The translations under genes and the position numbers were made by a program. DNA of 45,929 bases. Source: a bacterium. GTDB taxonomy: Bacteria; UBP6; JAFGXH01. Below the pieces are notes generated by a model that made no database searches, was not told the DNA's origin, and was given only the letters and a program-made list of their open reading frames with translations. Within the stretch, counting starts at the first letter, position 1. Each line of letters begins with the position of its first letter. The stretch lies in assembly GCA_016936735.1 (NCBI GenBank), contig JAFGXH010000267.1, forward strand, positions 1 to 45,929, in the 5' to 3' direction. Positions 1 to 33,213 of the stretch are shown piece after piece.

Positions 1-244
1 AATAGAGGGGGAAACCATGTTTTTCATGACATTAGACCATATTTTTGAACAAGAGAATAAAAAGGGAAAAGAAGAGGGAAAGATTGAAGGTAAAATTGAA
101 GGAAAGATTGAGGGTGAAAAACAAAAAGCAATTAAAATAGCAAAAAAAATGTTAAAAAAAGGCTCCTCTATTGAAGATGTTTCAGAAATAACAGAGCTTT
201 CAATTGAGGAGATTGAAAAACTAAAAAAAGAGATGGAGAGTTAA
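1..244 (+). CDS. Rpn family (YhgA-like, PD-(D/E)XK) recombination-promoting nuclease/putative transposase, 3' part; 17..244 corresponds to the internally initiated small C-terminal product
   Basis: Frame open to the window edge (IEGET-M); EGKI repeats and the IAKKMLKKG...ITELSIEEIEKL HTH-like tail typical of Rpn C-termini; GAGGGG just upstream of ATG 17. Confidence 0.85.
   Translation, partial: IEGETMFFMTLDHIFEQENKKGKEEGKIEGKIEGKIEGEKQKAIKIAKKMLKKGSSIEDVSEITELSIEEIEKLKKEMES
195..244 (+). repeat. 50-bp direct repeat, copy 1 (3' end of rpn gene)
   Basis: AGCTTTCAATTGAGGAGATTGAAAAACTAAAAAAAGAGATGGAGAGTTAA is identical to 11466..11515. Confidence 0.95.
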
Positions 245-303
245 AACTATTTAGTTTTTAAAAATATCAATAGAATCATATCTCAAAATATTCACCAGAT
301 TTA

Positions 304-332
304 TTGACAAAAAAATAGGTTTTATGTATAAC
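304..332 (+). promoter_or_regulatory. Sigma70-type promoter for the Cys-rich lipoprotein operon
   Basis: TTGACA-17 nt-TATAAC; AGGAG RBS before ATG 396. Confidence 0.6.
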
Positions 333-395
333 ATTTTTAGAGTTACATATACATGTTAATTCTATTAGAATTTAATTATATTAATAGGAGAAATT

Positions 396-2225
396 ATGAA
401 CTATTTTTTATTTGCTATTTTTATTTTTCTGTTTTCATGTTCAAATAGCTCAATAACATCTGAAGATAGTTGTAAAAATGTTAATTGTGAAGATTATCAA
501 AGTTGTGAAGAGGGTGTTTGTGTTGTAAAAGATGGATTTTGCTCTAAAAATTCAGATTGTCTTGGAAATAAATATTGTGATCCAACATCTCATACATGCA
601 AAACTGCTGGTAGTTGTGATGGCATTGTTTGTGAAGAGTTTGAGATATGCCAAGATGGAGATTGTGTTGTAAAAGAGGGATATTGTTCTAAAAATTCCGA
701 TTGTTTATTAGAAAATGGTTATTGTAACTCTATAACACATATTTGTGAAACAGATATCATATCATCTTGCGAGGGAATTAGTTGTATTAATGGTGAGTGT
801 GTTGTTATTGAAAATGTTGCAAAATGTGTTTGCAATAGTGGATATTTTAATAAAACATCTTTTCAGTGTGTTGAGGATACCTGTTTAAATAGAAATGAGA
901 TAGGTATAGATGAAAGTAGTGCAACAGTTCTCAATAGAAATAGAGAGGAGATTAAATGTTATGGAAAAAATGATATATATGTTGCAAATAAAAAAAATAT
1001 GATAATATCAATTAGTGAAAGTTTTACACTTACAGTTTATAAAAACTCTATCTCTCCAGAAAATGCACAATATATTAATCAAGAGAGTGTTTTTATTGAG
1101 AATAAAACAGAGGAGAACTATTTTATTGTTGTTAATAGAGATAACTATTATCGAGATGATGAATATACCATTTATTATAGAGAGGGATGTTCTGAAGATA
1201 GTAATTGTCCTGAAACATATCCATCATGTGTTGATTCAATTTGTGTTTTACCTTGTGAAAACAGTGAATGCCCCGATTTTTATGAGTGTGTAAATGGAAA
1301 ATGTGAAGAGATAATTTGTGAATCTCACAATGATTGTCCAGATAGTTTATGTATGTCTAATCATAGATGTGGATATACAAAATTCTGTAGTGAATATTAT
1401 GGTGGCTCATCTAATTGCTTTGATTTAGAGTCATTTGATGGGGATAAATTTTTATGTGATCCTATCTCTTATGGATCTCCAATGTGTATTCCATATAAAA
1501 GAGTAACAGATGCTACTTTTTCTATAACAGAGGAGTTTTTTGCTAATCCAAGATTTGCATTTTGGTATAGAATTAGAACAACAGAACCTAAAAATCATAA
1601 AATAGTGGTAACAGCAGACTATAATGGAAACCAATTAAGAGATAAACAGTTGATATATCAAGAGTATTGGTTAAGTGATGGTAATCTATATGTTGAACAG
1701 AGAGATGCTAATTCAATAGATTTTCAAGCAAAATATATGCCTACTGGAGAGTATTATATCTATCTTTTACCATACTCTATTTGCACAGGTAGTAGTTGTG
1801 AAAACATGAATGTTACACTATCTTTTGATGCAACAGAAAACTCCACATGTTCAAATGATGATGTTTGTAAAGATGAGATTGTTGAACGTTCTCAATGCTA
1901 CTCAAATGGATGTGTTTTTAGTTTTGCAAATAATGTATCTGTTGGTGATAGATGTGATCTTCATGAAAACTGTACAAACTTTGATCTTAATTATGTTGAT
2001 GGAGTATGTTTTGTTAAACCAACTGGAGGAGTCTGTTCAATTGAGTGTGGAACACATGAGGGATGTGAATTTGAAAATATGAATGGATATGACTACTGTG
2101 TTGATATTGGTGGGCAGGGATACTGTATGAATGAGTGTTTTTCTGATAGTGATTGTATTATTGGAACATTTGTTGGTGTTTGTGAGTTGGATGAGAGTTT
2201 AAATGTTAATCTTTGTAGATTTTAG
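396..2225 (+). CDS. Cys-rich modular lipoprotein (EGF/EB-like Cys repeats alternating with two Cys-poor beta-sandwich, PPC-like domains)
   Basis: Lipobox LFSC; CxxxxC/CxxxxDC repeats; CVCNSGY EGF motif; paralog of 5515..7452. Confidence 0.8.
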   Translation: MNYFLFAIFIFLFSCSNSSITSEDSCKNVNCEDYQSCEEGVCVVKDGFCSKNSDCLGNKYCDPTSHTCKTAGSCDGIVCEEFEICQDGDCVVKEGYCSKNSDCLLENGYCNSITHICETDIISSCEGISCINGECVVIENVAKCVCNSGYFNKTSFQCVEDTCLNRNEIGIDESSATVLNRNREEIKCYGKNDIYVANKKNMIISISESFTLTVYKNSISPENAQYINQESVFIENKTEENYFIVVNRDNYYRDDEYTIYYREGCSEDSNCPETYPSCVDSICVLPCENSECPDFYECVNGKCEEIICESHNDCPDSLCMSNHRCGYTKFCSEYYGGSSNCFDLESFDGDKFLCDPISYGSPMCIPYKRVTDATFSITEEFFANPRFAFWYRIRTTEPKNHKIVVTADYNGNQLRDKQLIYQEYWLSDGNLYVEQRDANSIDFQAKYMPTGEYYIYLLPYSICTGSSCENMNVTLSFDATENSTCSNDDVCKDEIVERSQCYSNGCVFSFANNVSVGDRCDLHENCTNFDLNYVDGVCFVKPTGGVCSIECGTHEGCEFENMNGYDYCVDIGGQGYCMNECFSDSDCIIGTFVGVCELDESLNVNLCRF

Positions 2226-2233
2226 AGGTTGAG

Positions 2234-4870
2234 ATGAAATATATAGTTATATTAAGTTTAATTTTATTACTATTCTCCTGTGGTGATGAGACTATTCACT
2301 CAAATTATACAGAAAACAATGATATTAATAGAGAGATGATCTCCAAAAATGGAAATCAAAGTGAGTATACTTCCGATTATCCAGAGATTGTTAATGTTGA
2401 TAGTTTTGATGAGATTCCTATTGATAAAAAAGAGGAGATTCCCAAAATTAAATCAATGTCTGATGATTTTTATGCAGGAAATGAGATAGAGAGATTAAAT
2501 ATTTGTAAAGACTCCAGTTATGATGGTTTTTTATTTGACTATATGGGATTTTTAATCAATGGCTATGTTGGAAAATCATTTTTACATTTTGAAATAAATG
2601 AACCATTAAAAGCTATAGATATTGAGGAAATGGATTCACTTTTACCATTCACTCCTCAAATGACAGAGTATTATGATAAAAAAACAAGAGAGAATTTTCT
2701 TTGGGATTTTAGTAGTTATGTTTCAATTGGAGATAATGTGAATCCATTCTCAACCGGTTTTAACTATATGGAGGAGTTTAAATCATTTAATAGTACTATG
2801 GATAAAGTTGATGTAAAACTTTATAAAACATCAGATGAATTAGTTCAATGTCTCTCTCCTAAATGGTCAGATTTTGAAACATATTCTGATGGTGATTTTG
2901 GTTTTGGAATTTTAAATAATCCTTATCCAACAGAGGTTGCACCAAAATTTGTAACATCATACTCATTTAATTTTAATTTTGAAAGTGGTGGATTTTGTAC
3001 ACTTACCAATTACTCTCCATCTTTTGATAGTTGTTCTGATAGTCATAATTGTTATAGCAATGATACTTGGGGACATAACTCTTGTACAGGATGTTTTTTA
3101 AATTTTTGTTATTGGGATATGGAGTATGAGATATATCCTAGAGAGATTACATCAAATATTGATGGGCAAGATTTTACTGGTAGTTGTTACTACTATGATA
3201 ATAATAAAAATGAGTTTGTACATTATAATAATGATTTTTGCAATCAAAAAAGATTTAATCTAATTGTTAAAGATAATAATGTTTTGACAGCAAATAATCC
3301 AAATTCTAAAAATATACATTTTCCAATGAAAACTTTTTATTTAAAAAATAAACCTGATGAATTAGAATTTACTAGTACAAATTCAATCTCTTTAATATAT
3401 TTACCAGGAGGAATTGATTTTACAATAAATCCAAATTTGACAGATATAGTCCAATCTTCAAAGGTGGAGGAGCTTTTTCACCAAATTGTAAAACAGGATT
3501 TTGAAATATTGGTTGATTATTGTAATGAAGAGGGACACAATAAATGTCCTGATAAAACAGAGCTTAACTCTTTTTATTTACTTGACAATGATTGTTATAA
3601 AACTATCAAAGATTTTAGTGAAGAGGAGTTGGTATCATTTTTTCAATATTTTTCAGATAATCCAACAATTAATCCATTAAATAGTATATTTACAACTATT
3701 GAGAGTTATAAAAAATGTGTTTATCAAGTTTGGAATATTTATAATAAAGGATCTTTAAAATTTGTTGATTCTGAATACTCTTGGAATTATGGTTTAATGA
3801 GAGATAACTATAATAAAACATTAAATACAAATTGCAAAAGCTATAAAAACTGCTCTTTTGGTCAATATTGTATGTCAAATGGTGTTCATCCTGTTGGAGA
3901 TATTCCTTGTGCAAAAGATGAAGAGAATTGCACTTGTGCAACAAAAAAATGTGAAGATATAAATGATTGTTTGTGTAGAGAGGATGGTATTTGCATTGCA
4001 GATAAAGAGGGATTTGGTTTAGAATGTAAACTTGAGACTACACATTACTCAGGAAGTTGTCAATTAGAAACTGAAATTGTTATAAATGAAAGAGTTGATA
4101 ATATAGATATAAATTACTCTCAAACTATTAATAGTGATGAGATTGATTATTATATTGATATAACTCCTGAAAAATTAGGTTCTGAAATATTCTATTTTGG
4201 TGGAGGTTTTAGCAGTGTTAAAAAATTAATCGCTTTTAACTATTATCGAAACCTTCGATATTCAGAATCTACTAACGAATTTATTGATAGTTGTCATAGT
4301 AATTCAGAATGTTTACCATTAAATAGTGATAAAATTAAATACTATTGTGAATATAGAAAATGTAGTACACTATTAGAAACATCATCTTTTGAAGTTAAAA
4401 CAGTAAGAGCAAATCCACTTAAAATATGGTTAAAATGGGGATTTTCTTTAGTTCCTGGTAATACAAGTAGTGAAGATTGGGGAGAGTCCCCATCAGAGGT
4501 GAATATTAATATAAATACAGTTTTATATCTTCTTCCAAGACAAAATAATAAAAAACTGTTTATTGATTTTGTTCCTCTTAACTCCAATAATTTCCATTTC
4601 TCTATTGATGCAAATGGAGAGTTAGATTATTTTAGTGAAGATGATATTTATTCAAATATCAATGATAAAATAGAGGATAAAATTGTTAAATTAATTATTG
4701 AAAATCCAGTTATTCCTATTGATACTGATTTTAGTATATTTAATGAATTGGGGGATATTTTTGAAAAAGTAAGAGGGGATATTAGAGATAAAATTAATGA
4801 ACTGCTTCCTGAAAATAGATTACCAAAATTTGATAATGTTGATTCAATTTTAGAAAGTTTAGATTTGTAA
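2234..4870 (+). CDS. Large lipoprotein of unknown function with Cys-rich segments
   Basis: Lipobox LFSC; 878-aa ORF; GAGG RBS; 8 nt after the previous gene. Confidence 0.75.
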   Translation: MKYIVILSLILLLFSCGDETIHSNYTENNDINREMISKNGNQSEYTSDYPEIVNVDSFDEIPIDKKEEIPKIKSMSDDFYAGNEIERLNICKDSSYDGFLFDYMGFLINGYVGKSFLHFEINEPLKAIDIEEMDSLLPFTPQMTEYYDKKTRENFLWDFSSYVSIGDNVNPFSTGFNYMEEFKSFNSTMDKVDVKLYKTSDELVQCLSPKWSDFETYSDGDFGFGILNNPYPTEVAPKFVTSYSFNFNFESGGFCTLTNYSPSFDSCSDSHNCYSNDTWGHNSCTGCFLNFCYWDMEYEIYPREITSNIDGQDFTGSCYYYDNNKNEFVHYNNDFCNQKRFNLIVKDNNVLTANNPNSKNIHFPMKTFYLKNKPDELEFTSTNSISLIYLPGGIDFTINPNLTDIVQSSKVEELFHQIVKQDFEILVDYCNEEGHNKCPDKTELNSFYLLDNDCYKTIKDFSEEELVSFFQYFSDNPTINPLNSIFTTIESYKKCVYQVWNIYNKGSLKFVDSEYSWNYGLMRDNYNKTLNTNCKSYKNCSFGQYCMSNGVHPVGDIPCAKDEENCTCATKKCEDINDCLCREDGICIADKEGFGLECKLETTHYSGSCQLETEIVINERVDNIDINYSQTINSDEIDYYIDITPEKLGSEIFYFGGGFSSVKKLIAFNYYRNLRYSESTNEFIDSCHSNSECLPLNSDKIKYYCEYRKCSTLLETSSFEVKTVRANPLKIWLKWGFSLVPGNTSSEDWGESPSEVNININTVLYLLPRQNNKKLFIDFVPLNSNNFHFSIDANGELDYFSEDDIYSNINDKIEDKIVKLIIENPVIPIDTDFSIFNELGDIFEKVRGDIRDKINELLPENRLPKFDNVDSILESLDL

Positions 4871-4884
4871 TTAAAGGAGAATCA

Positions 4885-5499
4885 ATGAGATATATTTTTG
4901 TAATAATAACACTATTAGGATTATCATCCTGTATTTCAACAAATAGCTCCTCAATGTATCCAATTGAAAAAGGGAAATCTGAACATGGTTTAACAATGTT
5001 AGGATTATCTAATTTTGTCTCATATACATTTAGAGAGGGAATAACAGATGATTTAGAGATTGATGGTCATATTGGATTGATTTCAATAGGAGCAAATCTA
5101 AAATATCATCTTTATAAAGATAACAACAATATTCTAAGTTTTAATATTGGACTACTAGATCTATTTATATTTGAAACAGCTTTAAGTTATACGATATTGA
5201 AATCAAAATATTTTGGAGTTAGATTTAGTGGTAAATATCAATATTTTTATAATACCTTATCAAATCGCTATGAAGATTCTGATGGTAAATATTATGATAT
5301 AACCGATTTTCAACGTGCTGGTGGAACTATAACTATTGGTGGGACAAGATTGTGGATAGAGGTTGGATATCTTTTTGTAATAGATAAAAATATAAAAAGA
5401 TATGATGATGATGGAATGGTTTTAAACTTGAATCCTTTTGACTATAATATAACAGAAAAAGAGAATCAGATTATTCTTAAAATTGGCATAGCTTTTTAA
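4885..5499 (+). CDS. Putative lipidated small outer-membrane beta-barrel protein
   Basis: LSSC lipobox; alternating hydrophobic strands; C-terminal ...LKIGIAF (terminal Phe, BAM-type signal); AAGGAG RBS. Confidence 0.65.
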   Translation: MRYIFVIITLLGLSSCISTNSSSMYPIEKGKSEHGLTMLGLSNFVSYTFREGITDDLEIDGHIGLISIGANLKYHLYKDNNNILSFNIGLLDLFIFETALSYTILKSKYFGVRFSGKYQYFYNTLSNRYEDSDGKYYDITDFQRAGGTITIGGTRLWIEVGYLFVIDKNIKRYDDDGMVLNLNPFDYNITEKENQIILKIGIAF

Positions 5500-5514
5500 A
5501 TTAGAGGAGGATAT

Positions 5515-7452
5515 ATGAGATATCTACTATTTATTATTACTATTATGGTAACACTATTTATTGGTTGTGGAAAAGATGAGAAAGAACCAACAACAGATTT
5601 ATGTAAAAACAAAGTTTGTGAAGAGTGGGCAGAGTGTAATTCAACAAATGGAGTTTGTGAAGCAAAAGCAGGATTTTGTTCTGAAAATGGGGATTGTGTA
5701 GGATTAAATGTATATTGTGATGAAGCAACACACACCTGTATAGAGGAAAATTTATGTAAAGATGTTGTTTGTGCAGATTGGGAGGAGTGCAATTCAACAA
5801 ATGGTGTTTGTGAACTAAAAGAGGGAAATTGTGAAGAGAATGGAGATTGTGTTGGATTAAATCAATATTGCAATTTAACAACACATATTTGTGAAGAGAA
5901 ACTGTCTGTTTGTGATGGAATTAGTTGTGGTGGAACAGATGCAGGAAGTTGTGGTGTTGTTAATGAGAATCCAGTTTGTGTTTGCAATAGTGGATATTTT
6001 AAAAAATCTGAATTTGAATGTGTTGAGGATAATTGTGCAAATAGATCTCCAATAGGACACACAAAAGAGAGTGCAACATCATTTGAAAGCTCTGTTTTTA
6101 CTGTTTACGAGGATACAACCGCATTTGTAACAGAACAAGATTCATGTCAGGGGGTAGAGGATATCTATTTAATAACAGATGAGAGTGTTGTTATTGTATT
6201 TAGAACAAGTGATAAATATGTAAAGAGATTTGAAGTTGAGCTTTATAAAGATGAGATAGATTTAGAGCATAAAGTTTTTTATAAAAACTATGTAGATCAT
6301 ATGAATGATGTAAAAACATTAATAAAGAATCCAGAGAGAGCAAACTACTATCTTGTGATTAGAAATATATCATCAAGAGTTAGTGAAGATTACCATCTAT
6401 TTTATGATGAATTCTGTGTAATTTGTGATGGTGAATTAGATTGTATTGAAAATATCTGTTATGACAAATGTGAAAGTGATAGTGAGTGTGGACTTGGCTT
6501 TAAGTGTGATGAAACAACAAATGAGTGTTCTGCTATCACTTGCACAATGGATCAGGAGTGTTCTATTGATGATTGGTATGATTTTAATTACTGTATAAAT
6601 GGAAAATGTGTTGAAAGAGTTGATTGTCATGCAGATAGTGATTGTTCTGAACTAAATTATGATGATGTATATTTTTTCTGTTATCATAATAAATGTAAAC
6701 CATCAGATATTGTTAATTTTGGAGAATCTATTACAAAAGAAATCTATTTAAAAAAATTAAGCCACCATTTCAAAATAGACTCAATGGGAGATATATATAA
6801 TTTTGAAGTAAAAGTTAAAGGGCTTGAGATATTAGAAAAAACCTCTATAGAAATTATTTTTTATCAATACGATAATGTTTATAATTATAGTTGTTTTGGA
6901 GGTAAAAGAGATAATAGTATTGCGGAATTTAGTTGTAAAATACCTCCATATCAAGCAGGAGAACCTATTTTTGTCTCATTATTATTAGATTATGAAAACT
7001 GTTTAAACAATTGTGATAATGTTGAGGTTACTATTGAGTTTGGAGAAAATAATCCTATTGGATGTTCAAATGATGATGTCTGTATTTTGGAGTCAGAAAA
7101 AGAAAATACATATTATACAAGAAGTATTTGTGATATAGAGAGAGCTGTTTGTGTTGAAAATCAACAAGAGAATATCTCAGAATTAGGTGAAAGTTGTGAT
7201 AATGATGCAAATTGTATAGAATTTGATACCATTTGTATTAGTGTTTGTATGCAAGAAGAGTGTATTTCTGATGAGGAATGTTTACCTTTACCAGATGGTA
7301 GTGAAACATATTGTGATAATGAGAATCAGTTCTATATTCCTCTTTGCAGAAAATTTTGTCAAACAGATAATGATTGTATTTTCTTCCCAAATTTATATAA
7401 CAGTCATTGTGATGAAATAACAAATCGTTGTGTTTATGAGGAGTTAAGATGA
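5515..7452 (+). CDS. Cys-rich modular lipoprotein, paralog of 396..2225
   Basis: FIGC lipobox; two tandem ~51-aa repeats (LCKxxVCxxWxECNSTNGVCExKxGxCxENGDCVGLNxYC); shares CVCNSGYF and CSNDDVC with 396..2225. Confidence 0.8.
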   Translation: MRYLLFIITIMVTLFIGCGKDEKEPTTDLCKNKVCEEWAECNSTNGVCEAKAGFCSENGDCVGLNVYCDEATHTCIEENLCKDVVCADWEECNSTNGVCELKEGNCEENGDCVGLNQYCNLTTHICEEKLSVCDGISCGGTDAGSCGVVNENPVCVCNSGYFKKSEFECVEDNCANRSPIGHTKESATSFESSVFTVYEDTTAFVTEQDSCQGVEDIYLITDESVVIVFRTSDKYVKRFEVELYKDEIDLEHKVFYKNYVDHMNDVKTLIKNPERANYYLVIRNISSRVSEDYHLFYDEFCVICDGELDCIENICYDKCESDSECGLGFKCDETTNECSAITCTMDQECSIDDWYDFNYCINGKCVERVDCHADSDCSELNYDDVYFFCYHNKCKPSDIVNFGESITKEIYLKKLSHHFKIDSMGDIYNFEVKVKGLEILEKTSIEIIFYQYDNVYNYSCFGGKRDNSIAEFSCKIPPYQAGEPIFVSLLLDYENCLNNCDNVEVTIEFGENNPIGCSNDDVCILESEKENTYYTRSICDIERAVCVENQQENISELGESCDNDANCIEFDTICISVCMQEECISDEECLPLPDGSETYCDNENQFYIPLCRKFCQTDNDCIFFPNLYNSHCDEITNRCVYEELR

Positions 7453-10409
7453 GATATCTACTATTTATTATTCTATTTTTAATAAACTTCTCCCTCTTCT
7501 CTTGGAATGGGAAAACACATGTCTCTCTTGGTAGAGAGGTATTAAATAGTATTGTTGATAAAACAGGTACTGCAAATGGTGTACATATTGATGGTTATGA
7601 TATCACTCTCAATGGTGGTCAAAAAGTTATAAGTGATTTTGAGATATTAAATTCAATAAAAAGCTATCCATCCTATTTTCTTGCAGGTAATATAGGTCCA
7701 GATGGTTTTCCTGATGTATTTACTGGTCAAATGGCAACACATGAAGAGAATACTAAAAATGTTGTTGATAGAAAAAATCAGATAGATTTTAAAAAGCTTA
7801 TGAAATACACTTGTGAAAAATTTGGAGAGGAGTCAATTAAATATAGTGAGTGCAAAGAGGATATTAAAAAAATTCTTTGTGAACAGTTTGGAAAAGATGA
7901 GTATGTTAGAAACTGTTATGAATCTATACGATATATGGAGGAGTCTCAAACTATTCCAACATTTCCAAACACAAACCACTCAAAAGGAACTGTTTTAGGT
8001 AAAAGTCTTCTAAAAAAAATCCCATACAAATATAGAACCCCATATTTTTGGAGAATGATTGATTGGGGACAATATCTATTAGAGTCTGCACTTCAACCAC
8101 TTTACTATAGACAAACTAGTGATGGTGCTATTATAAAAAGCTCTCATCCTGTTTGGAAAGCTGTGAGTAATAGAGAGGCATCTCATATTAATGAAAAATA
8201 TTTAGAGAAAAATAGTAATGGTGACTATATTATTAGTGATAGAGAGTTGGCAAAAGATTTAAGATCTCAGGCAATTGCCTTCTCTTATGGCTATTTAAAT
8301 CATATTGCATCTGATGCTTTTGGTCATGAATATATTAATAAATTTGTTGGAAACTACTTTGATTTAGAGGATTTATCAGATTTAACACAAGAGACAACAC
8401 ATCTTGCTCTTGAGGAGTATGTTGCTTTTATTATAAGACCTTGGTTATTTCAAACAGTGATTAATGGATATACAAAAAAAAGTATTAATAATGGTCAAAC
8501 AAAAATAGAAGCTTGTGAAATAACAGATCCTTTTAAAAAAATTCCAGCAGGTTGTGAAAAAAATAGTGGAGGAACTATTGTTCCTTTTGAATTAAAGCAG
8601 AATATCCCATTAAACAATTTGGATATTCCTGTTGTTTTTTTAGCAGAAACAATGATGTCAAAAGATATAGAGAAGGCATCTCCATTAAGTTATCACATAA
8701 AACTATTTCAAGAGATTATTAGTTTTGTTGATGATTTTGAGGATAAACTTGCATTTGGTTATAAATGTTCAGATAGCTCTGAATGTGAATCTTTTGGAGA
8801 AAACTCTTTTTGTGGTGAAAATGGATACTGTTCTGGATCATTCTCTTTATCATACAAAGTATTGAATGATAGTTGTTCTGAACCAATAACTCCATCACTT
8901 TCAGCCTACTTTTTTAATGAGTGTGTCACTATTGGAAGATTAGGTGATATGAGTGGATTAGAGAGATGTTTAGGTGATTTAAAGAATTTTCTTCTATTCT
9001 CCTATTTAAAAGGTGTTCGAGAGAGAACAAAAGAGGGTGTTTATAGATGGGTTACTAAAAGTCGTGATATAATGAAGTATGGAATTATTGCTGATGAGGA
9101 GTTGAATGATTATCGAGTTGAGAAAAAAGAGTGTGGTGTATCAACACCAATTTCAGATGAGTATGGCTATTTGATTAATCCAGATTGCTCTTTTTCTGAT
9201 ATTGATTATGATGAAAATACTCTTGGTGATTACTACTCAGATGGAAGAGCATTTGAGTGTCAACTTGATGAAAGTAGAAATAAACATTATTGCAAACCAA
9301 GAGGTGGAAGATTAAATGCAATAAATCATGTAAAAAGCTATGTTGATATTTTAAACTATATTCTAAAACCAGATGAAAACTCCGATTTAATACAGCTTTT
9401 TGAACATGCCTGTGATAATATAAATAGATATAACTATGTTGATATCTGTGAATATAGTAAAGGATTACTAAAAGATGAGGTAAAAACTCTTATTAATGAG
9501 ACTCAATCACTGCTTATTCAAAGAGTAAAAAACTATATGAAACCATTAAGCAAAATGATTACAAAAATAAATGAGATTATTTATAAAATTCCAAGAGATC
9601 CTGAAAAAATCTTTAACATGGCATTCTGCACATCAAAAGAGGATATCTCAAACTGTATAAAATCTTGTGATATAGGAATATTTGATGGAACTGTTCCAGA
9701 CTCTCTATTTTTTGAAACAAATATAAAAGTTAGAGGTGGTGTTTGTAATCAATGTAATTTTAGTTATGATGAGTGTCCAAATGCAAAAAAAGCAAAAGAG
9801 AGAGTTTTTTATGAGATGGGATTGTTAATCCCAAAAGTGGCATTTGGTCTTAATATTTACTCTCTTTATGGAGAAAATGAGATAGAGTTAGATAAACCAT
9901 GTGCTCAAAATGAGGGAAGATTCTCATGCTACATGAAAAAAATGCTTGTTGCTGGAAAAAGGGCAAGTGCAATGAGAGATCCAAAAGATAGTGATTTTTA
10001 TCAGCATTCACCATTTTTAAATATGGCTCCACTGCATAACAGTTTGCAACTTAATAAACTCTCTTTGATTACTAAATCAAATATGGATGATCTATTTATT
10101 GATTTTGGTAAAAATATTAATGAATCATCCTGTTCAACTGTAGATAATTTTATATATGAATCAAAAAATGCAAGATTTTGTTTAAGTCAACCTCTTAATA
10201 AAACATGTATTGATAGAGGAGTTGAGTTAGCACATTGCACTAAAGATGATAGTGATTTATATTCAGAGCTTTTTATAGAGGATAAAGATGATTTTATTAA
10301 AGAAAAAGAGTTTGGAAGAGTCTCAACTGTAGGTGGTTCTGTATCTGTTATCACAATTCTCTGTCCAAAATGTCCTAAAAATATCTCTCAATATCTTGTA
10401 AAAGAGTAA
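7449..10409 (+). CDS. Secreted Zn-dependent phospholipase C / S1-P1 nuclease superfamily protein with large Cys-containing extensions
   Basis: Signal peptide ending SLFS followed by mature N-terminal WNGKTH; GNIGPD; YGYLNHIASDAFGH; HLALE, matching the W..H / D / HxxxD..H / HxxxE trinuclear-Zn ligand pattern. Confidence 0.75.
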   Translation: MRYLLFIILFLINFSLFSWNGKTHVSLGREVLNSIVDKTGTANGVHIDGYDITLNGGQKVISDFEILNSIKSYPSYFLAGNIGPDGFPDVFTGQMATHEENTKNVVDRKNQIDFKKLMKYTCEKFGEESIKYSECKEDIKKILCEQFGKDEYVRNCYESIRYMEESQTIPTFPNTNHSKGTVLGKSLLKKIPYKYRTPYFWRMIDWGQYLLESALQPLYYRQTSDGAIIKSSHPVWKAVSNREASHINEKYLEKNSNGDYIISDRELAKDLRSQAIAFSYGYLNHIASDAFGHEYINKFVGNYFDLEDLSDLTQETTHLALEEYVAFIIRPWLFQTVINGYTKKSINNGQTKIEACEITDPFKKIPAGCEKNSGGTIVPFELKQNIPLNNLDIPVVFLAETMMSKDIEKASPLSYHIKLFQEIISFVDDFEDKLAFGYKCSDSSECESFGENSFCGENGYCSGSFSLSYKVLNDSCSEPITPSLSAYFFNECVTIGRLGDMSGLERCLGDLKNFLLFSYLKGVRERTKEGVYRWVTKSRDIMKYGIIADEELNDYRVEKKECGVSTPISDEYGYLINPDCSFSDIDYDENTLGDYYSDGRAFECQLDESRNKHYCKPRGGRLNAINHVKSYVDILNYILKPDENSDLIQLFEHACDNINRYNYVDICEYSKGLLKDEVKTLINETQSLLIQRVKNYMKPLSKMITKINEIIYKIPRDPEKIFNMAFCTSKEDISNCIKSCDIGIFDGTVPDSLFFETNIKVRGGVCNQCNFSYDECPNAKKAKERVFYEMGLLIPKVAFGLNIYSLYGENEIELDKPCAQNEGRFSCYMKKMLVAGKRASAMRDPKDSDFYQHSPFLNMAPLHNSLQLNKLSLITKSNMDDLFIDFGKNINESSCSTVDNFIYESKNARFCLSQPLNKTCIDRGVELAHCTKDDSDLYSELFIEDKDDFIKEKEFGRVSTVGGSVSVITILCPKCPKNISQYLVKE

Positions 10410-10523
10410 TAATAAAAAACTATTCAGCAGAGTTTAAATTTTAAATAAAAAATAAAACAACATTCAGATATAAATTCATGAGACTATCCGATTTTAAGAA
10501 AAATAATTGCAAAAATCCAGATA

Positions 10524-10548
10524 TATAATATAATATAATATAATATAA
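10524..10548 (+). repeat. (TATAA)5 microsatellite in the rpn upstream region
   Basis: Five tandem TATAA units giving several TATAAT boxes downstream of TTGCAA (10507..10512). Confidence 0.7.
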
Positions 10549-11323
10549 ACAGTTGTATTTATGGATTTAATAATGCCAACAAAAAGAAAACCTATTGTTC
10601 ATCAAACAGAGGATAAGATATTAAAAAGACTATTCTCAAATGAGATAATCGTAAAAGAGTTTATTCAAGATTTTGTAAAAGAGGATTTTGTAAAAGATTT
10701 AAATCTGGATAGTATGAAACTACTTCCAAATGAATTTTATAACAGAGGAGTTAAAAAGCTACTCATCAGATTGTTTATGGGAGATTAAATATAAAAAAAC
10801 GAAAGTATATTTAATAATATTAATTGAGTTTCAATCAGCAGTTCATAACTTCATGCAACTTAGATTTTTGAACTATATAACACAAATATATTTAAAATTA
10901 GTAAAACAGAATAAACCAATGAAAAGTTTACCATTTATATTTCCTGTTCTGTTTTATACAGGAAATAAAGAGTGGAAAAAATCAAATAGATTTCATGATT
11001 TGATAGATATAAATTATGAAAGTGTTAAAAAATATATTCCTAATTTTGAGTATTTTAATTTTAATGTTTCAAAACAGAATTTAAACAATTTAAAAGAGAT
11101 GGATTCAATCCTAAGTCAACTTCTGGCAATTGATTTGGAGGAGAATATTGAGGAGTATAATGATTTTCTGCAAAAAATAAGGGTGATTTCAGAAAAATTG
11201 CTGAAAAAAGAGCAAAGAGATGTTTTGTTTAAAGAGATATCACTTTATTTACAACATAAAGCAGAAAACTATTTAGATCTTAATGTTGAAGAGATTGAGG
11301 ATATATTAAATGGAGGAGATACA

Positions 11324-11515
11324 ATGATAGCAAAAGGTTTAAAAAAAGTTATTGAAAGAAGTAAAAAGGAGGGATTTGAGGAGGGAGCCTATTTGGAAAA
11401 AATACAGATAGCAAAAGAGCTTCTTTTAAATGGAACAAATACTGTTTTTGTTGCAAAAATCACAAAGCTTTCAATTGAGGAGATTGAAAAACTAAAAAAA
11501 GAGATGGAGAGTTAA
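11324..11515 (+). CDS. Internal small Rpn C-terminal protein (RpnS-type, 63 aa)
   Basis: In-frame GGAGGAGATACA-ATG inside the rpn gene; product MIAKGLKK...LSIEEIEKLKKEMES. Confidence 0.65.
   Translation: MIAKGLKKVIERSKKEGFEEGAYLEKIQIAKELLLNGTNTVFVAKITKLSIEEIEKLKKEMES
11466..11515 (+). repeat. 50-bp direct repeat, copy 2
   Basis: Identical to 195..244. Confidence 0.95.
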
Positions 11516-11636
11516 TATCTCCCTATCTTTAGAATAATATTTTTATAAACCAAAGCACTTTTAATAAAAATAAAACATTAGCTTGTTATTATTATACAGA
11601 TTATTTATTTGTTAAAAATATTTGAAAAAATTCGGA

Positions 11637-11679
11637 AAAGAATGTCACACTTTCTATCCTATAAATTGTGACATTCTTT
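11637..11679. promoter_or_regulatory. Perfect 13-bp inverted repeat (protein-binding site or hairpin)
   Basis: AAAGAATGTCACA-17 nt-TGTGACATTCTTT. Confidence 0.55.
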
Positions 11680-11834
11680 ATAAAAATAGAGATTATTATA
11701 AATATTTTCATTTTTTTGTAATAATTTTTTTTATTTTTCTTAATTTTTATTTATTTAAAAAACTCTTCTTTTATTCTAAAATATAAAAAATATAGCAATT
11801 ATCTTTTTAAATGAACAAAAATATATATCAATTT

Positions 11835-11860
11835 CAGCGGGTTAAAACCACGCTGTTCAT
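11835..11860. repeat. REP-like palindrome, copy 1
   Basis: CAGCGGGTTAAAACCACGCTGTTCAT, similar to 28413..28437. Confidence 0.6.
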
Positions 11861-11957
11861 TTATTTTAATGAACAGGGTATTTTAATTCCCTACAAGAAT
11901 AAAAAAAAATTTATTCATGTGGATGCGAGTAACTTAATTTTATGATTTAATAAAAAC

Positions 11958-11974
11958 TTGGAAAATTAGTTGCT
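11958..11974 (+). promoter_or_regulatory. Candidate sigma54 (-24/-12) promoter
   Basis: TTGGAAAATTAGTTGCT = GG-N10-GC, about 33 nt before ATG 12008; the CACG part of the consensus is not matched. Confidence 0.4.
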
Positions 11975-12007
11975 AAAACCTACTCAGTTTTTATTATGGA
12001 GATTTTT

Positions 12008-13402
12008 ATGAAAAAGTTAGTTTTACTTATTGTATTATCATTAACAATTTTGGTTAGTGGTTGTGAAGAGACAACAACATCTCGTAATCCAGAGGAGGCT
12101 CAAAAAAAAGTTACACTAGGAAATGAGTTTATGGAGACAAAAATTAATGAGGTGATTAATATTGAGTCTAAAACCAAAGGAGAGATGGATAAAATCGATT
12201 TTAGAGCTGCAAATGAGCTCTATAAAGAGGCTATTGAAGAGGATGATGAAAATCTTGATGCACATTTGGGTGCTGCAGTTACTGAAGTGTTAACTATTTT
12301 TCAAAAAGATGAGTTTAAAAAATTGAGAGATGCATGGTTTGATTTTGATGATATTTATGATGGTGAACTTGTAAATGCAGAGATGAATAAAAAAGTTTTT
12401 AATGTTTTACCATTTATTAACACTGAACTTCTTCCAGTTGTAGATTACTCTTTAGAGAGACTTCAAATAGTTGAAAAAAAATCTGATTATACTTTTACAA
12501 TCACTTCAAGAATGATGGGAGGTGATAGTAATCCAGAGAGTTATAACTATGAAACACCAAGAGAGATTGATGTTACAGATATTAAATTTGCAATTGCCTC
12601 TTTACATCTACTAAAGGGCTTTATTGCAATATCAAATGCCTATGAGATAACTCTTCCATCATATAGTATTAATGATATTGCAACAGCATTAAACAAAGAT
12701 GGTGCCCTATTAAAACTTAAAAATGGTGCAAAAATGGGTGAGGCTTTAGCTCAATTTCGTCTTGCTGTTGATAAAGCTTTAGATGGAATTGACTCTCTTT
12801 TGGGTGAAACAGATGTGCAATCAAATGATTTAATTAGTAATCATCATTTAGATGAGATTAATCAAGTTAAAGAGACTCTTCAAAAAATTAAATCAGTTCT
12901 TACAGAACCATATAGATTAGCTTTTGCTGGTAACAAAGAACTTTTAATTGATTTAGTATCTTTTATGCAAAACCCTCCAGTAAATCTAAAAGCACTTTTA
13001 CCTCAATATAGTGTTACTGTTGGTGAGTATAGTAATTTAGAATTCGAATTTATTAAACCTATTGAAATTCCAGATTTCACTTTTGGTTCACTTTTTCCAC
13101 AACAAACAACACAAGAGGCTTGGGAAGATTTTGGAAAAGCTTTAGTTTGTGATGATGAGTTTGGTTTAGTTTGTGAAGAGAGTTGCTATAACCATACTGG
13201 CTCATATAAATTTTGTGATGAATCATGGGGTGAAGAGTGTTCATTAGAGTATTGCCAAGATTATGCAAGTTATGATGAAAATTGTGACTGTTTTGAAAAT
13301 GGTGATAATACAGTTTGTTATGTTGAGTATAATGATTGGGATTGTGAAGAGAGTGGAGATGTTTGTATACCAACAAGATTTGCAAATGAGTGTGGTGAAT
13401 AA
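12008..13402 (+). CDS. Lipoprotein with N-terminal TPR-like motif, helical core and Cys/acidic C-terminal tail
   Basis: GGAG RBS then MKKLV...LVSGC lipobox (start 12008 preferred over 11996); ANELYKEAIEEDDENLDAHLGAA TPR-like motif. Confidence 0.75.
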   Translation: MKKLVLLIVLSLTILVSGCEETTTSRNPEEAQKKVTLGNEFMETKINEVINIESKTKGEMDKIDFRAANELYKEAIEEDDENLDAHLGAAVTEVLTIFQKDEFKKLRDAWFDFDDIYDGELVNAEMNKKVFNVLPFINTELLPVVDYSLERLQIVEKKSDYTFTITSRMMGGDSNPESYNYETPREIDVTDIKFAIASLHLLKGFIAISNAYEITLPSYSINDIATALNKDGALLKLKNGAKMGEALAQFRLAVDKALDGIDSLLGETDVQSNDLISNHHLDEINQVKETLQKIKSVLTEPYRLAFAGNKELLIDLVSFMQNPPVNLKALLPQYSVTVGEYSNLEFEFIKPIEIPDFTFGSLFPQQTTQEAWEDFGKALVCDDEFGLVCEESCYNHTGSYKFCDESWGEECSLEYCQDYASYDENCDCFENGDNTVCYVEYNDWDCEESGDVCIPTRFANECGE

Positions 13403-13413
13403 AATAGGATTTT

Positions 13414-14679
13414 GTGATACTATATCTTTTACTTCTTTTTAATATTCAATTAAGTAGTGATAACTCTTTTTACTCAAATATAGAGTATCTACCAATTAGC
13501 AACAAAAAAAACTATCTCTATTTTTATAAAAGTGAATTTGGATTAACTTATAAAAAATCAGAAAATCAGAGCATCTTTTTATCTTATCAATATAACTCTA
13601 TAAATAGCCTACTATCTGATAAAAATTGGAATTTTTCATGTAATTTTAATCATAATAAAATCAAATTTGGCTCTGTTTTAAAGAAAAGTTACTATAAAAC
13701 CCCAATATATTTTATATATTCAGATAGTGGTGTTGGTTTTGGAACTGGTTTGATAGTTGAGAAGATAAATTATAAGCTATCTATGTTTTATGAAAGATTT
13801 CAAAATGCTGAAACTGGTGAATTTAACTATCAATTAGATAAAATTCCACATAGATTAAGTAGTCTAAATTCAGTTTTCGAGATATCTTTTGAGTTTCAAG
13901 ATGTTTTAAAACTTTATTGGAAACGAATAGAGTTAAGTAATAAAAATAGTGAACAAAACAGTTTCTATTATAAAAACTCAAATTTTTTTGAGTTTGGTTA
14001 TATAAAATTTAGTAATTTAGATCTATTTTTGAAAAAGAGTGATTATAAAAGCTTTTTTAGCTCTATCTATTTTGATTTTTTATTAGGTTATGCTTCAACT
14101 AAAAATAGATTATTAAGTGAAATGGATACTATTCCCACTCTTTTACTATCTCAAAAAGATAGTTCGGAGCTTTTTTTTGGATACTCTCTTTTAGGATACA
14201 ATTTTATTTCTGTTTTTGCAGGTTTTTTAAATGGAAGTGATATCGATTTTTTTGGTTATATTGACTCTTGGCCATTTGAAAACTCTATTCAGCAGTTTAT
14301 AAGTGGAAAACTAAGATTTGAAGGGGTTGGAGAGTTAAATCTATATTTATATGGTTTATTTTTAAGTTTTAAAAATATTGATATAACTCTTTTAAAAGGA
14401 GATATTAATATTAATTTTGACTATAGTTACTTTTCAAAAGGAGTTTGGGGAGTTGGAGAGATTCCTATAACAAATAAATTTTTCAAAAAAACTCTCTCTT
14501 TTTATCTTTTAGGTATTAACTATAAAAATATTTTAAAATTTGGTAGATATGAGATATCATTTTACCAATTGATTCCCAGTAAGAGTACAAACTCCACCCA
14601 AAATATAAGTGAACAAGATTTCAACAATAGTAAATCGGGTGGATATTATATCAAATTCAGTTACTTTATTGATTTCTAG
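13414..14679 (+). CDS. Putative outer-membrane beta-barrel protein
   Basis: Aromatic-rich amphipathic strands, ends GGYYIKFSYFIDF; GTG start with AGGA RBS, 11 nt after the lipoprotein gene. Confidence 0.6.
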   Translation: MILYLLLLFNIQLSSDNSFYSNIEYLPISNKKNYLYFYKSEFGLTYKKSENQSIFLSYQYNSINSLLSDKNWNFSCNFNHNKIKFGSVLKKSYYKTPIYFIYSDSGVGFGTGLIVEKINYKLSMFYERFQNAETGEFNYQLDKIPHRLSSLNSVFEISFEFQDVLKLYWKRIELSNKNSEQNSFYYKNSNFFEFGYIKFSNLDLFLKKSDYKSFFSSIYFDFLLGYASTKNRLLSEMDTIPTLLLSQKDSSELFFGYSLLGYNFISVFAGFLNGSDIDFFGYIDSWPFENSIQQFISGKLRFEGVGELNLYLYGLFLSFKNIDITLLKGDININFDYSYFSKGVWGVGEIPITNKFFKKTLSFYLLGINYKNILKFGRYEISFYQLIPSKSTNSTQNISEQDFNNSKSGGYYIKFSYFIDF

Positions 14680-14830
14680 TAAAATAATTTTATATTTTTT
14701 TTGATCTTTAAAATAAAGTTTAGAGTGAAAAAAGAAAATATAAATATAATGTTGACAAAAAATAGATTTATATTGTTTTTAATAGTTGATTTGTGATAAA
14801 TAGATTTGTTTTTCTTTTGTAGAGTAAACA

Positions 14831-16018
14831 ATGGTTATTGTATTTATTTTAACTTTTGGGGTGATTTTCTTTTTTTGGCTTGAGTACTTTCTTCATGTAA
14901 AACATCTAAAATCCATAAAAATTAGAGTTCATGTTAATGGCACTCGAGGAAAATCATCAGTAACTCGTCTTATTGCTGCTGCTTTAAGAGAGAATGGTAT
15001 TAAAACTTTTGCAAAAACAACTGGAACTTTGCCAAGAATGATTCTTGATGATGAGAAGGAGTATCCAATATATCGTCCATCAAAAGCAAATATTATTGAG
15101 CAGGTTAGAATTGTTACTTTTGCTTCGTTAAACAGTGCAGAGGCCTTAGTAATTGAGTGTATGGCTTTACAACCAAGACTACAATCTTTGGCTGAACTAA
15201 AATTAGTAAAAGCAACTCATGGTGTTATTACAAATGCAAGACCTGACCATCTGGATGTAATGGGACCAGAGGAGAAAGATGTTGCACTTGCACTACTTGC
15301 AACAACACCAAAACAGGGTAAGCTGTTTACTGCAGAAAGAGATTACCGTGAAACATTTAAAATGGCCTGTGATGACAGAAAAACAGCTCTTAATATTGTT
15401 GAGGAGAGTGAATTAGATGAAATTACAGATGAAGAGTTACTAGGATTCTCTTATGTTGAGCATAAAGAGAATATTGCTCTTGCTCTTAAAGTTTGCAAAG
15501 ATATTGGTCTACCAAGAGATATCTCTTTAAGAGGTATGACTAAAGTTAAACCAGACCCTGGAGCTATGACAGAGCATAAAGTTAACTTTTTTGGAAGAGA
15601 TATTGTTTTTGTTAATGGTTTTGCTGCAAATGATCCTGAATCAACAGAGAGAATTTGGAATATGGCAGTTACAAAACATTCAGAATATGCTAAAAAGATA
15701 ATGATTGTTAATTGTCGTTCAGATAGACCTGATAGAACTAGACAATTGGCAGAGGTTGTAACTCAATGGAGTCCTGCAGATAACTATGTTCTTGTTGGTT
15801 CTGGAACATATATTTTTGTAAAAATAGCGGTTAAACTTGGTGTGGATCCTCGAATAATTATTAATGGTGAGGATATGAGTACTGAGAAGGTTGTTGAGGA
15901 GATTTTAGGATTAATTAGAAAAAGTGCAATGGTTATGGGAATTGCAAATATTGCTGGTCCAGGTCTTGAATTAACAGCCTATTTTAAAAATAGAGCCATA
16001 ATTGAGGATGAAGAGTAA
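14831..16018 (+). CDS. pgsB: Poly-gamma-glutamate synthase PgsB/CapB
   Basis: N-terminal TM; RVHVNGTRGKSSVTRLI, KTTGT, IECMALQP, TNARPDHLDVMGP, FAANDPEST. Confidence 0.95.
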   Translation: MVIVFILTFGVIFFFWLEYFLHVKHLKSIKIRVHVNGTRGKSSVTRLIAAALRENGIKTFAKTTGTLPRMILDDEKEYPIYRPSKANIIEQVRIVTFASLNSAEALVIECMALQPRLQSLAELKLVKATHGVITNARPDHLDVMGPEEKDVALALLATTPKQGKLFTAERDYRETFKMACDDRKTALNIVEESELDEITDEELLGFSYVEHKENIALALKVCKDIGLPRDISLRGMTKVKPDPGAMTEHKVNFFGRDIVFVNGFAANDPESTERIWNMAVTKHSEYAKKIMIVNCRSDRPDRTRQLAEVVTQWSPADNYVLVGSGTYIFVKIAVKLGVDPRIIINGEDMSTEKVVEEILGLIRKSAMVMGIANIAGPGLELTAYFKNRAIIEDEE

Positions 16019-16059
16019 AATTTTTTAAATGAACATTTCCCTATTTTTAAGGAGGAATT

Positions 16060-16533
16060 GTGGATGATGTTTTAATGATTACCAATATTGTGACATTGTC
16101 AATAACAATAGGGCTTATTGTAAGTCTTATTTTTTCTGAATTTTTCGGAATTGCAGCTGGTGGAATGGTTGTTCCTGGTTATATGGCTCTTTTTATAAAT
16201 AAGCCAACAGTGATTGTTTTAACTCTATTAATAAGTTTTCTTACCTATTTTATTGTTCACTCTCTTAGCTCATTTATGATTATTTATGGAAGAAGAAGAA
16301 CTGTTTTAATGATTTTAATTGGATTTATTCTTGGTTGGTTTATAAAAACTATTGGTACAATACCTCTAGGAACTGCATCAATTGATTTAAATGTTGTTGG
16401 ATATATTATTCCAGGTCTCATTGCTATTTGGATTGATCGTCAAGGTGCAATTGAGACATATTCAGCACTTATAACATCAAGTATTGTTGTAAGATTAATT
16501 CTTCTATTAGTTGTTGGTGCGGAGGTGTTATGA
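16060..16533 (+). CDS. pgsC: Poly-gamma-glutamate biosynthesis membrane protein PgsC/CapC
   Basis: GGMVVPGYMAL, IYGRRR, GYIIPGLIA motifs; multiple TM helices. Confidence 0.93.
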   Translation: MDDVLMITNIVTLSITIGLIVSLIFSEFFGIAAGGMVVPGYMALFINKPTVIVLTLLISFLTYFIVHSLSSFMIIYGRRRTVLMILIGFILGWFIKTIGTIPLGTASIDLNVVGYIIPGLIAIWIDRQGAIETYSALITSSIVVRLILLLVVGAEVL

Positions 16534-17672
16534 AAAAACTATACTGGAAACCAGGAAAAATATCTTGGAAAATACATTTTATAATTGCAATTGTTGCAGT
16601 TGTTGGAATGTTATCTGTTGAACTTTTTAAAAATAAAATAAATACTCCATATCATAATAGAAAAGTTAAGGCTGCAAGAGTTATGAAAAACGGTATGGAT
16701 GTTTTAAAAGAGTATAGATTAAAAAATATTGGTCCAATTGATTTAGAGATGGATCCAGCAGCATCTGGAATTATTGGAATGTTATTATCTCCAATAACAA
16801 GTAATACAGGCTATCACTCCGCAAAATTAACAACAGTTAACCCAAATTGGGCTGCTGCTATGGTTGATATGTTGATAAAAGCAGGTGTTAGAGAGGGAGA
16901 TACTATTGCAGCAGCCTTTTCAGGCTCTTTTCCTCTCATGAATCTTGCTCTTTTATCTGCTGCTGAGGTTATGAAACTTAAGGTAGTTATTATAACAAGT
17001 AGTGCTGGTTCAACTTGGGGTGCAAATATTCCAGGTTTCTCTTGGTTAGATATGGAGCATATTTTGTATGAAAAAAGAGTTATCACAAACCACTCTATTG
17101 CGGCATCTATTGGTGGCTCTAAAGATAGAGGTCTTGGAATGAGTAAAGAGGGACGTGATATTCTTAAAAACACAATACAAAAATATGGAATCAGATTTAT
17201 TGATACAAAAGAGGAGATAGAGAATGTTGATTTAAGAATGGATATCTATAAGTCATATATGGATGATTCAAGATATGCAGCATTTGTAAATGTTGGTGGT
17301 GGAACAATCTCTGTTGGAAGTAGTGTTGGTAAAAAACTATTTAAACCAGGAGTTACTCTAAATCCAACACATAAAGCACTAAGTATTGATAGTGTCATGA
17401 GCCGTTTTGGTAAAGAGGGAGTTCCTATTATTCATATCACATCAATTGAGACTCTTGCTGCAAAATATAAATTTCCTGTTGCACCAACAAAAATACAGAG
17501 TGTTGGAGAGGGTGAGTTTTTTGTGAAATTTGAGTATGATAAAAAGATTATTATATTTACTCTTTTAGCCCTTATAACACTATTGATTATTTTTATTAAA
17601 ATGGATATTGGATATAGAATATTCAATACAAAAAAGGTATCAAAATCAAGTACTCCTGGACAAATGGTTTAA
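16530..17672 (+). CDS. pgsW: Poly-gamma-glutamate system protein PgsW
   Basis: SPITSNTG, KLTTVNPNWAA, SGSFP, STWGAN, NVGGG; N- and C-terminal TM; ATGA overlap with pgsC. Confidence 0.85.
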   Translation: MKKLYWKPGKISWKIHFIIAIVAVVGMLSVELFKNKINTPYHNRKVKAARVMKNGMDVLKEYRLKNIGPIDLEMDPAASGIIGMLLSPITSNTGYHSAKLTTVNPNWAAAMVDMLIKAGVREGDTIAAAFSGSFPLMNLALLSAAEVMKLKVVIITSSAGSTWGANIPGFSWLDMEHILYEKRVITNHSIAASIGGSKDRGLGMSKEGRDILKNTIQKYGIRFIDTKEEIENVDLRMDIYKSYMDDSRYAAFVNVGGGTISVGSSVGKKLFKPGVTLNPTHKALSIDSVMSRFGKEGVPIIHITSIETLAAKYKFPVAPTKIQSVGEGEFFVKFEYDKKIIIFTLLALITLLIIFIKMDIGYRIFNTKKVSKSSTPGQMV

Positions 17673-17675
17673 TTT

Positions 17676-17698
17676 TTCCCCCAAAGGGGGAAGTTTTT
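17676..17698 (+). terminator. Intrinsic terminator after pgsW
   Basis: TTCCCCC-AAA-GGGGGAA followed by GTTTTT. Confidence 0.7.
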
Positions 17699-17701
17699 AA
17701 A

Positions 17702-32623: not shown

Positions 32624-32631
32624 TACTCCCC

Positions 32632-33201: not shown

Positions 33202-33213
33202 ACTATCCTCCTA

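Follow-up and report, generated by a model that had tools for sequence, protein, structure and literature searches.

What do five closely packed genes for exported proteins encode when the last of them specifies a putative metal-dependent phosphodiesterase, and does their position between two rpn genes bear on how they came to be there? The question is raised by the first part of the DNA stretch analysed here, which is the complete 45,929-nucleotide (nt) contig C122 of genome G000 (3.59 Mb, 380 contigs, 93% complete) and is called the window in what follows. Five open reading frames (ORFs), termed ORF1 to ORF5, occupy 396-10409 on its plus strand. A preliminary description of this DNA had taken the region for an accessory island bracketed by rpn genes and encoding a candidate surface-anchored hydrolase apparatus. 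On the analysis presented here we lean, with modest confidence, towards a lineage-specific cell-envelope operon built around ORF5, which would be an extracytoplasmic trinuclear-metal phosphodiesterase.

ORF5 and the Zn-PLC family

The five genes are arranged as follows, with protein lengths given in amino acids (aa):

396-2225, plus strand: ORF1, 609 aa, lipobox LFSC, 59 Cys
2234-4870, plus strand: ORF2, 878 aa, lipobox LFSC, 31 Cys
4885-5499, plus strand: ORF3, 204 aa, lipobox LSSC, 1 Cys
5515-7452, plus strand: ORF4, 645 aa, lipobox FIGC, 61 Cys
7449-10409, plus strand: ORF5, 986 aa, signal peptide at residues 1-18, 33 Cys

The ORF coordinates give spacers of 8, 14 and 15 nt followed by a 4-nt overlap of ORF4 and ORF5 (ATGA), exactly the co-directional layout that had been described, and distances of this order leave no space for separate promoters. 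The export signals reported for all five proteins and the lipoboxes reported for four were likewise recovered, the lipoboxes by means of a simple regular expression applied within the first 18 residues and not by a trained predictor, while the N-terminus of ORF5 is hydrophobic and contains no Cys.

A family match was obtained for ORF5 alone among the five proteins. The whole protein scores 29.4 bits against Pfam PF00882 (Zn_dep_PLPC, the zinc-dependent phospholipase C or Zn-PLC family; curated cut-off 26.8), and its N-terminal domain (N-domain) alone scores 33.3 bits; PF00882 is the sole Pfam entry at E <= 0.1, and the S1-P1 nuclease family is not listed at that threshold. PF00882 was also matched by all 22 subfamily N-domains tested, and hhalign aligned the ORF5 subfamily profile with a compact 305-aa PF00882 protein from genome G039 at a probability of 97.6% (E 4.2e-12). 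The Zn-PLC-family domain of ORF5 ends at about residue 335 and contains two insertions. Eight candidate metal ligands (H24, D85, H98, H285, D289, H293, H318 and E322) are invariant in a 25-sequence alignment, in the pattern H/D/H/H-x3-D/H/H-x3-E, as are W201 and W206. The Zn-PLC/S1-P1 ligand set that had been read in ORF5 is borne out by the invariance of the eight residues, which would correspond to ligand residues of Bacillus cereus PLC. At family level the assignment of ORF5 to the Zn-PLCs, as judged from sequence, can be considered sound.

The N-terminus of the protein is consistent with this assignment. W19 comes directly after the 18-residue hydrophobic leader and is the predicted mature N-terminus, and in an alignment read by eye the position five residues before the first His is occupied by W or F in 22 of the 25 sequences. 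An aromatic residue right after the leader fits the free aromatic N-terminus of the PLC family. In Listeria PC-PLC (PMC10576769), W1 must stand at its exact position, the W1F variant stays active and a single added N-terminal residue abolishes activity. All three close ORF5 homologs also retain 21 Cys at the same positions, as would suit a protein of an oxidising compartment outside the cytoplasm.

Structural comparison of the N-domain model by VIA, a search independent of Foldseek, placed Zn-PLCs at ranks 1, 2 and 5 among 48,161 chains: the Clostridium absonum alpha-toxin (1olp_A; Z 4.9, rmsd 4.6, 132 aligned residues), B. cereus PLC (1ah7_A; Z 4.5, 150 aligned) and Listeria PC-PLC (8cqm_B; Z 4.1, 149 aligned). 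The S1/P1-type nuclease SmNuc1 came at rank 18 (Z 3.5, 155 aligned). With the full-length model, VIA returned generic helical bundles on residues 450-694 (Z up to 8.9) and a PLC at rank 18 (Z 6.7). The ranking obtained for the N-domain, low as its scores are, agrees with the Pfam assignment.

These observations can be joined into a tentative mechanism. ORF5 would leave the cytoplasm by the Sec route and lose its first 18 residues, a cleavage that we infer from the leader, so that Trp19 would form a free N-terminus. Together with the eight ligands, Trp19 would complete a three-metal site of the kind found in Zn-PLCs, by which ORF5 may hydrolyse a phosphodiester outside the cytoplasm, a phospholipid head group being the likeliest substrate and a nucleic acid a less likely one. 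The two insertions and a probably disulfide-rich C-terminal region would account for a size about four times that of the classical enzymes.

ORF5 has few close relatives. A search of 5.8 billion clustered proteins returned three: P0002 (60% identity, 97% coverage), P0003 (35% identity, 85% coverage) and P0004, whose match is confined to the N-domain. When genome and metagenome collections were scanned with ORF5 alignments, 16 and 26 loci were obtained, all of them distant relatives of the N-domain, which encode secreted proteins of 629-1288 aa where complete and come from Sulfurimonas, gammaproteobacterial, Bacteroidota and other metagenome-assembled genomes (MAGs). Alignment A3 omits L006, L013, L019, L020, L025 and L031 as ORFs running off their contigs, L002 and L009 for uncertain starts, L034 as a near-duplicate, L038, in which the script found no ORF, and eleven short loci (L023, L028-L030, L033, L035-L037, L040, L041 and L043).

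Compared with the distant relatives, ORF5 carries insertions of ~95 and ~55 aa within the catalytic domain. Past the catalytic core it extends for ~650 Cys-rich, mostly helical residues, of which the last ~540 (from about residue 440) are common to P0002 and P0003 only; against the C-terminal regions of the distant relatives hhalign gave a probability of 11.8%, so that homology is not detectable. A GlyGly-CTERM-like tail considered for ORF5 was rejected, being not conserved in P0003 and, in a by-eye reading, having too short a hydrophobic run.

Like ORF5, the proteins of L003-L042 and P0004 have the GN(I/V)GPDxxPD and YGYLxHxxxDxFxH motifs, a signal peptide, a W/F-x4-H start and the invariant ligands; unlike it, they have neither insertion, no relation of their C-terminal regions to that of ORF5 could be detected, and no ORF1-4-like neighbours were found beside them. 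L003-L042 (for example L014, 9989-12076) make up a widespread uncharacterised PF00882 branch whose predicted mature N-terminus is mostly Phe. With B. cereus PC-PLC, the N-domain of clostridial alpha-toxin and Listeria PC-PLC, ORF5 shares PF00882, the ligand pattern and a predicted aromatic N-terminus; its low-confidence models are helical, and these enzymes are its top, if weak, fold matches. It differs from the classical enzymes in its roughly fourfold size, the two insertions, the C-terminal ~540 aa, the lack of a PDB sequence match, and the location of its gene 3' of four genes for lipoproteins in an organism of diderm type; and unlike the alpha-toxins it is without a C2/PLAT-like domain.

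The lipoprotein genes and the distribution of the operon

ORF1 and ORF4 are collinear paralogs with 30% identity over 588 aa (E 4e-54), and with the N-terminal repeats left aside 25% identity persists over 379 aa (E 5e-14). ORF1 comprises a tandem pair of Cys repeats with an EGF-like CVCNSGYF module, after which come Cys-linked beta-rich modules. The two proteins had been characterised as paralogous Cys-repeat, PPC-like lipoproteins; the paralogy holds, whereas the PPC label found no backing, since none of ORF1-4 has a Pfam or NCBIfam match at E <= 0.1. A PDB search with ORF4 gave nothing beyond an EGF-like stretch (E 0.21).

The comparison set comprised 39-41 genomes, among them G001, of the same genus (82% complete), and G002, of the same family (94% complete). 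The Cys-repeat module (about residues 20-180 of ORF1 and ORF4) is present in 36 of 41 related genomes, with 40 matches in G000, 43 in G001, 28 in G002 and 0-5 per genome elsewhere in the phylum, which makes it an expanded family trait and not a feature special to the operon. In G000, G001 and G002 the expanded module lies mostly within open frames of ~1100 aa. The C-terminal part of ORF4, on the other hand, was found in 1 of 41 genomes, namely G000. By analogy, ORF1 and ORF4 may be likened to Cys-rich-repeat surface proteins such as myxobacterial TraA, an envelope-anchored protein in which a disulfide-rich repeat stalk is combined with a more variable domain; they differ from it in having an N-terminal lipid anchor and not a C-terminal sorting tag, and they gave no sequence family match.

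For ORF2 one close homolog was found (P0006, 56% identity), together with three remote ones in 1.84 billion representatives, and there was no Pfam, PDB or Atlas match. P0006 and the ORF5-like P0002 come from the same source collection and lie on different short contigs. ORF3, which has no Pfam match, shows alternating hydrophobic segments and a C-terminus ending in GIAF, and the Atlas language-model search brought it together with clusters named 'outer membrane protein beta-barrel domain' at a score of 0.97, which serves as a lead only. To regard ORF3 as a candidate small outer-membrane beta-barrel is a reasonable lead.

Upstream of these genes, a single sigma70-like promoter had been proposed:

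304-332, plus strand: candidate promoter, TTGACA at 304-309, 17-nt spacer, TATAAC at 327-332, inside the 151-nt gap 5' of ORF1

Both boxes are present; because shuffled sequence holds such sites as often (99 found against 83.5 +/- 8.8 in shuffles), the site is not statistically distinguishable from shuffles and can be called a candidate promoter only. The four lipoproteins, probably made from the same transcript as ORF5 and comprising two Cys-repeat paralogs, the large orphan ORF2 and the candidate small barrel ORF3, could plausibly hold, aim or restrain ORF5 at the envelope. A complex prediction for the ORF5 N-domain with residues 180-645 of ORF4 scored 0.00, which gives no verdict and counts as evidence neither way.

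ORF4 (5515-5537) and ORF5 (7449-7471) begin with an identical 23 nt (MRYLLFII) that has no other exact copy in the genome, suggesting local duplication or conversion of the 5' ends; the start of ORF3, MRYIFVII, resembles it.

Within the comparison set, G000 was the only genome in which ORF5, a member of the ORF2 family, ORF3 or the ORF4 C-terminal part was found, and ORF2, ORF3 and ORF5 are each unique within G000. Since none of these parts was found in G001 or G002, the region counts as accessory, a call that covers ORF2, ORF3, the ORF4 C-terminal part and ORF5; the Cys-repeat module itself occurs in G001 and G002. A limited literature search found no description of such an operon.

The rpn genes and the wider neighbourhood

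The operon lies between two genes of the same orientation:

2-244, plus strand: upstream rpn, last 80 codons; TIGR01784 E 2.2e-8, 34.3 bits (cut-off 52.1)
10574-11515, plus strand: downstream rpn; PF04754 83.3 bits, TIGR01784 53.9 bits (cut-off 52.1)

The contig starts inside the upstream gene, so only its 80-codon tail is seen and the TIGR01784 score stays below the cut-off. The downstream gene is frameshifted near 10735-10745, 10574-10786 lying in one frame and 10730-11515 in another, and ~25 nt 5' of its start stands a perfect (ATATA)x5.2 repeat (10523-10548), possibly a slippage-prone promoter element. The two same-strand rpn genes with identical last 50 bp, on which the preliminary description had relied, are both present and the identity is exact (195-244 equals 11466-11515, as confirmed by a 49-nt pattern search); the pair nevertheless consists of a stub upstream and a frameshifted gene downstream. 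Over their last 80 residues the two Rpn copies are only ~45% identical.

The 50-nt motif recurs with 3 mismatches on C157 and on C291, and C248 stops within it, giving at least 5 copies; its recurrence and the break in C248 mark it as a repeat at which the assembly is broken up. For a genome of 3.59 Mb holding at least 7 rpn-like loci, chance would yield 0.13 pairs within 11.3 kb, 0.07 on the same strand. The 3' end is a motif of the rpn family, and a same-strand flanking pair is still expected only 0.07 times; the pair exceeds chance expectation in a manner that is suggestive without being compelling.

Both flanking copies carry an internal ATG ~65-76 codons before the stop, at 17 behind a Shine-Dalgarno-like GAGGGGG in the upstream gene and at 11324 behind GGAGGAG in the downstream one. 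From 17 residues past its internal Met, the upstream gene encodes three GKIE repeats (TRF period 12, 83-119), and the rpn gene of C291 (9461-10426) encodes four. Internal Shine-Dalgarno sequences with ATG codons, and four-residue repeats that vary between paralogs, are features shared with the RpnS intragenic antitoxins as portrayed in PMC10400941, which treats Rpn genes as phage-defence toxin-antitoxin genes that are not autonomously mobile. According to PMC5350276, RpnA is a non-specific endonuclease whose overproduction raises RecA-independent recombination. The present copies depart from the Rpn (YhgA-like) systems in that the assembly cuts one short and the other has a frameshift, and a defence or recombination role could be assigned to them only by analogy. 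For the flanking genes we prefer the view that they belong to Rpn toxin-antitoxin defence and lie in a variable region over the view that they delimit a mobile cassette.

The GC content is ~28% contig-wide, and that of the operon region (0.26-0.30) is the same as in the remainder of the contig. No tRNA gene lies in the window, and neither an integrase nor a conventional transposase family appeared among the window ORFs scanned against Pfam. Within the first 20 kb, the only part common to G001 is a cap-like block (14759-17863, 86% nt identity), both flanks of which differ there, so that the region is variable and offers no empty site for comparison. Of the accessory island originally proposed, the accessory part can be kept, given that operon parts were not found in G001 and G002, while the marks of an island (integrase or transposase, tRNA gene, GC shift, empty site) were not seen.

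Other genes of the window are as follows:

11996-13402: 468-aa lipoprotein, lipobox VSGC, Cys-rich C-terminus, no family match
13414-14679: 421-aa protein ending in YFIDF, no family match
14831-17672: three-gene block resembling a poly-gamma-glutamate/capsule operon (Mur-ligase-like, CapC and one more gene)
32015-33783, minus strand: three TerD-sized genes, with a TerD match shown for 32015-32623
40475-42043: 522-aa ankyrin-repeat protein

The genes of 11996-14679 were not found at DNA level in G001. PADLOC gave no match for 8 proteins, and Rfam none in 1-15000. The window, or part of it, occurs in 4 sequencing runs. One freshwater-metagenome run, with 0.93 of the sampled words, is probably the source of the contig; the other three hold shares of 0.06-0.11, and no RNA run is listed among the runs with window words.

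Competing explanations and significance

Several results weigh against an envelope operon centred on a Zn-PLC-like enzyme. The ORF5 models are poor, with a model confidence (pLDDT) of 62.5 for the mostly helical full-length protein and 54 for the N-domain modelled alone. Foldseek, which the preliminary description had proposed for this protein, found no PLC, giving no PDB match at E <= 0.001 with the full-length model and none with the N-domain model, and PDB sequence searches with ORF5-family queries and the compact G039 protein returned nothing significant and no PLC. Every PLC fold match in VIA has Z < 7, a range that VIA itself calls common for helical models. The W1...H6 spacing predicted for ORF5 is that of P1 nuclease and not of B. 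cereus PLC. As regards the operon, the expectation that Zn-PLC relatives would be found beside such lipoproteins failed: the 42 loci in which distant ORF5 relatives lie contain nothing that matches ORF1-4, which leaves no conserved neighbourhood, and a by-eye comparison of 16 of these loci showed no common neighbours, the ORF5 relatives appearing alone. Cys-repeat lipoprotein genes are, moreover, so common in G000 (40 matches) that their adjacency to ORF5 could be incidental.

Some of these points would suit a different enzyme. ORF5 might be an extracellular nuclease of the S1/P1 type, or a nucleotide-scavenging phosphodiesterase, and not a phospholipase; S1/P1 nucleases have the same superfamily metal site, the ORF5 subfamily is far in sequence from all solved PLCs, and the P1-like W-x4-H spacing recurs in the compact 305-aa relative (WGPATH). 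SmNuc1 was indeed aligned over 155 residues, yet it is outranked by the PLCs in the same N-domain search, PF00882 remains the only family listed for ORF5, and its last candidate ligand is Glu, which is PLC-like, the P1 equivalent being Asp. A nuclease of this kind is therefore judged rather improbable. A plainer explanation, also unlikely in our estimate, is that the neighbours have no common function, ORF1-4 being ordinary members of the lipoprotein repertoire that happen to stand 5' of a secreted enzyme gene. The abundance of the Cys-repeat module in G000, G001 and G002 (40, 43 and 28 matches) and the isolated position of the distant ORF5 relatives speak for it, and just past the operon there follow one more Cys-rich lipoprotein (11996-13402) and one more protein with a terminal F (13414-14679). 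It is countered by the 8-15-nt spacing with the ATGA overlap, which leaves no space for separate promoters, and by ORF2, ORF3 and ORF5, which are unique in G000 and were not found in the same relatives.

The more elaborate proposals concern what the proteins do together and how the genes moved. In the preliminary description, the five proteins form an outer-membrane machine in which the lytic enzyme is presented by variable Cys-repeat lipoproteins that recognise a surface, be it of prey, of a competitor or of a host, with the barrel as anchor. Such a machine would be in keeping with the operon structure and its 4-nt ORF4/ORF5 overlap, with an ORF5 that has no lipid anchor of its own beside four proteins that are each predicted to be lipidated, and with ORF1 and ORF4 as conserved Cys-repeat N-terminal modules joined to diverged C-terminal parts; it is difficult to square with 42 of 42 distant-relative loci lacking a homologous neighbourhood and with the lack of a match to any known surface-complex family. 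The ORF2 and ORF5 homologs, P0006 and P0002, have similar identities (56% and 60%) and a shared source collection, but sit on different short contigs. We hold the machine to be quite unlikely, and hold just as doubtful a variant in which ORF1 and ORF4, as disulfide-rich repeat stalks with variable heads, and ORF2 would tether ORF5 to the outer membrane by way of the lipidated barrel, aimed at foreign membranes or polymers, with the ~540-aa C-terminal region of ORF5 docking or regulating it. Gain, loss or exchange of the genes as a cassette, by recombination between the identical 50-nt rpn ends, appears very improbable. The same-strand flanking pair with 50 identical terminal nt despite ~45% identity of the last 80 residues, the low chance expectation (0.07-0.13 pairs), the failure to find the region in same-genus G001 and the RecA-independent recombination promoted by overexpressed RpnA (PMC5350276) would favour it, whereas the motif is common to at least 5 rpn copies, the flanking copies are a frameshifted gene and a stub, the GC content does not depart from that of the contig, a tRNA gene (in the window) and an integrase family (among the ORFs scanned) were not found, and G001 offers no empty site, both flanks of the shared block differing. 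With Rpn genes described as defence toxin-antitoxin pairs and not as autonomously mobile (PMC10400941), cassette swapping is speculation. Where they could be tested here, both the apparatus and the rpn-cassette ideas are unsupported.

Overall, ORF5 is filed, on its sequence features, as a probable new large variant of the Zn-PLC family within a lineage-specific lipoprotein operon, which at present amounts to an annotation-level curiosity from a host phylum that is barely sampled (39 species genomes). From outside the model organisms, the flanks add natural Rpn examples that have internal starts and vary in their four-residue repeats. If active, ORF5 would be a very large member of the Zn-PLC family and the first tied to a lipoprotein set in a diderm bacterium, and it could give a handle on the wide uncharacterised PF00882 branch seen in Sulfurimonas, gammaproteobacterial and Bacteroidota MAGs.

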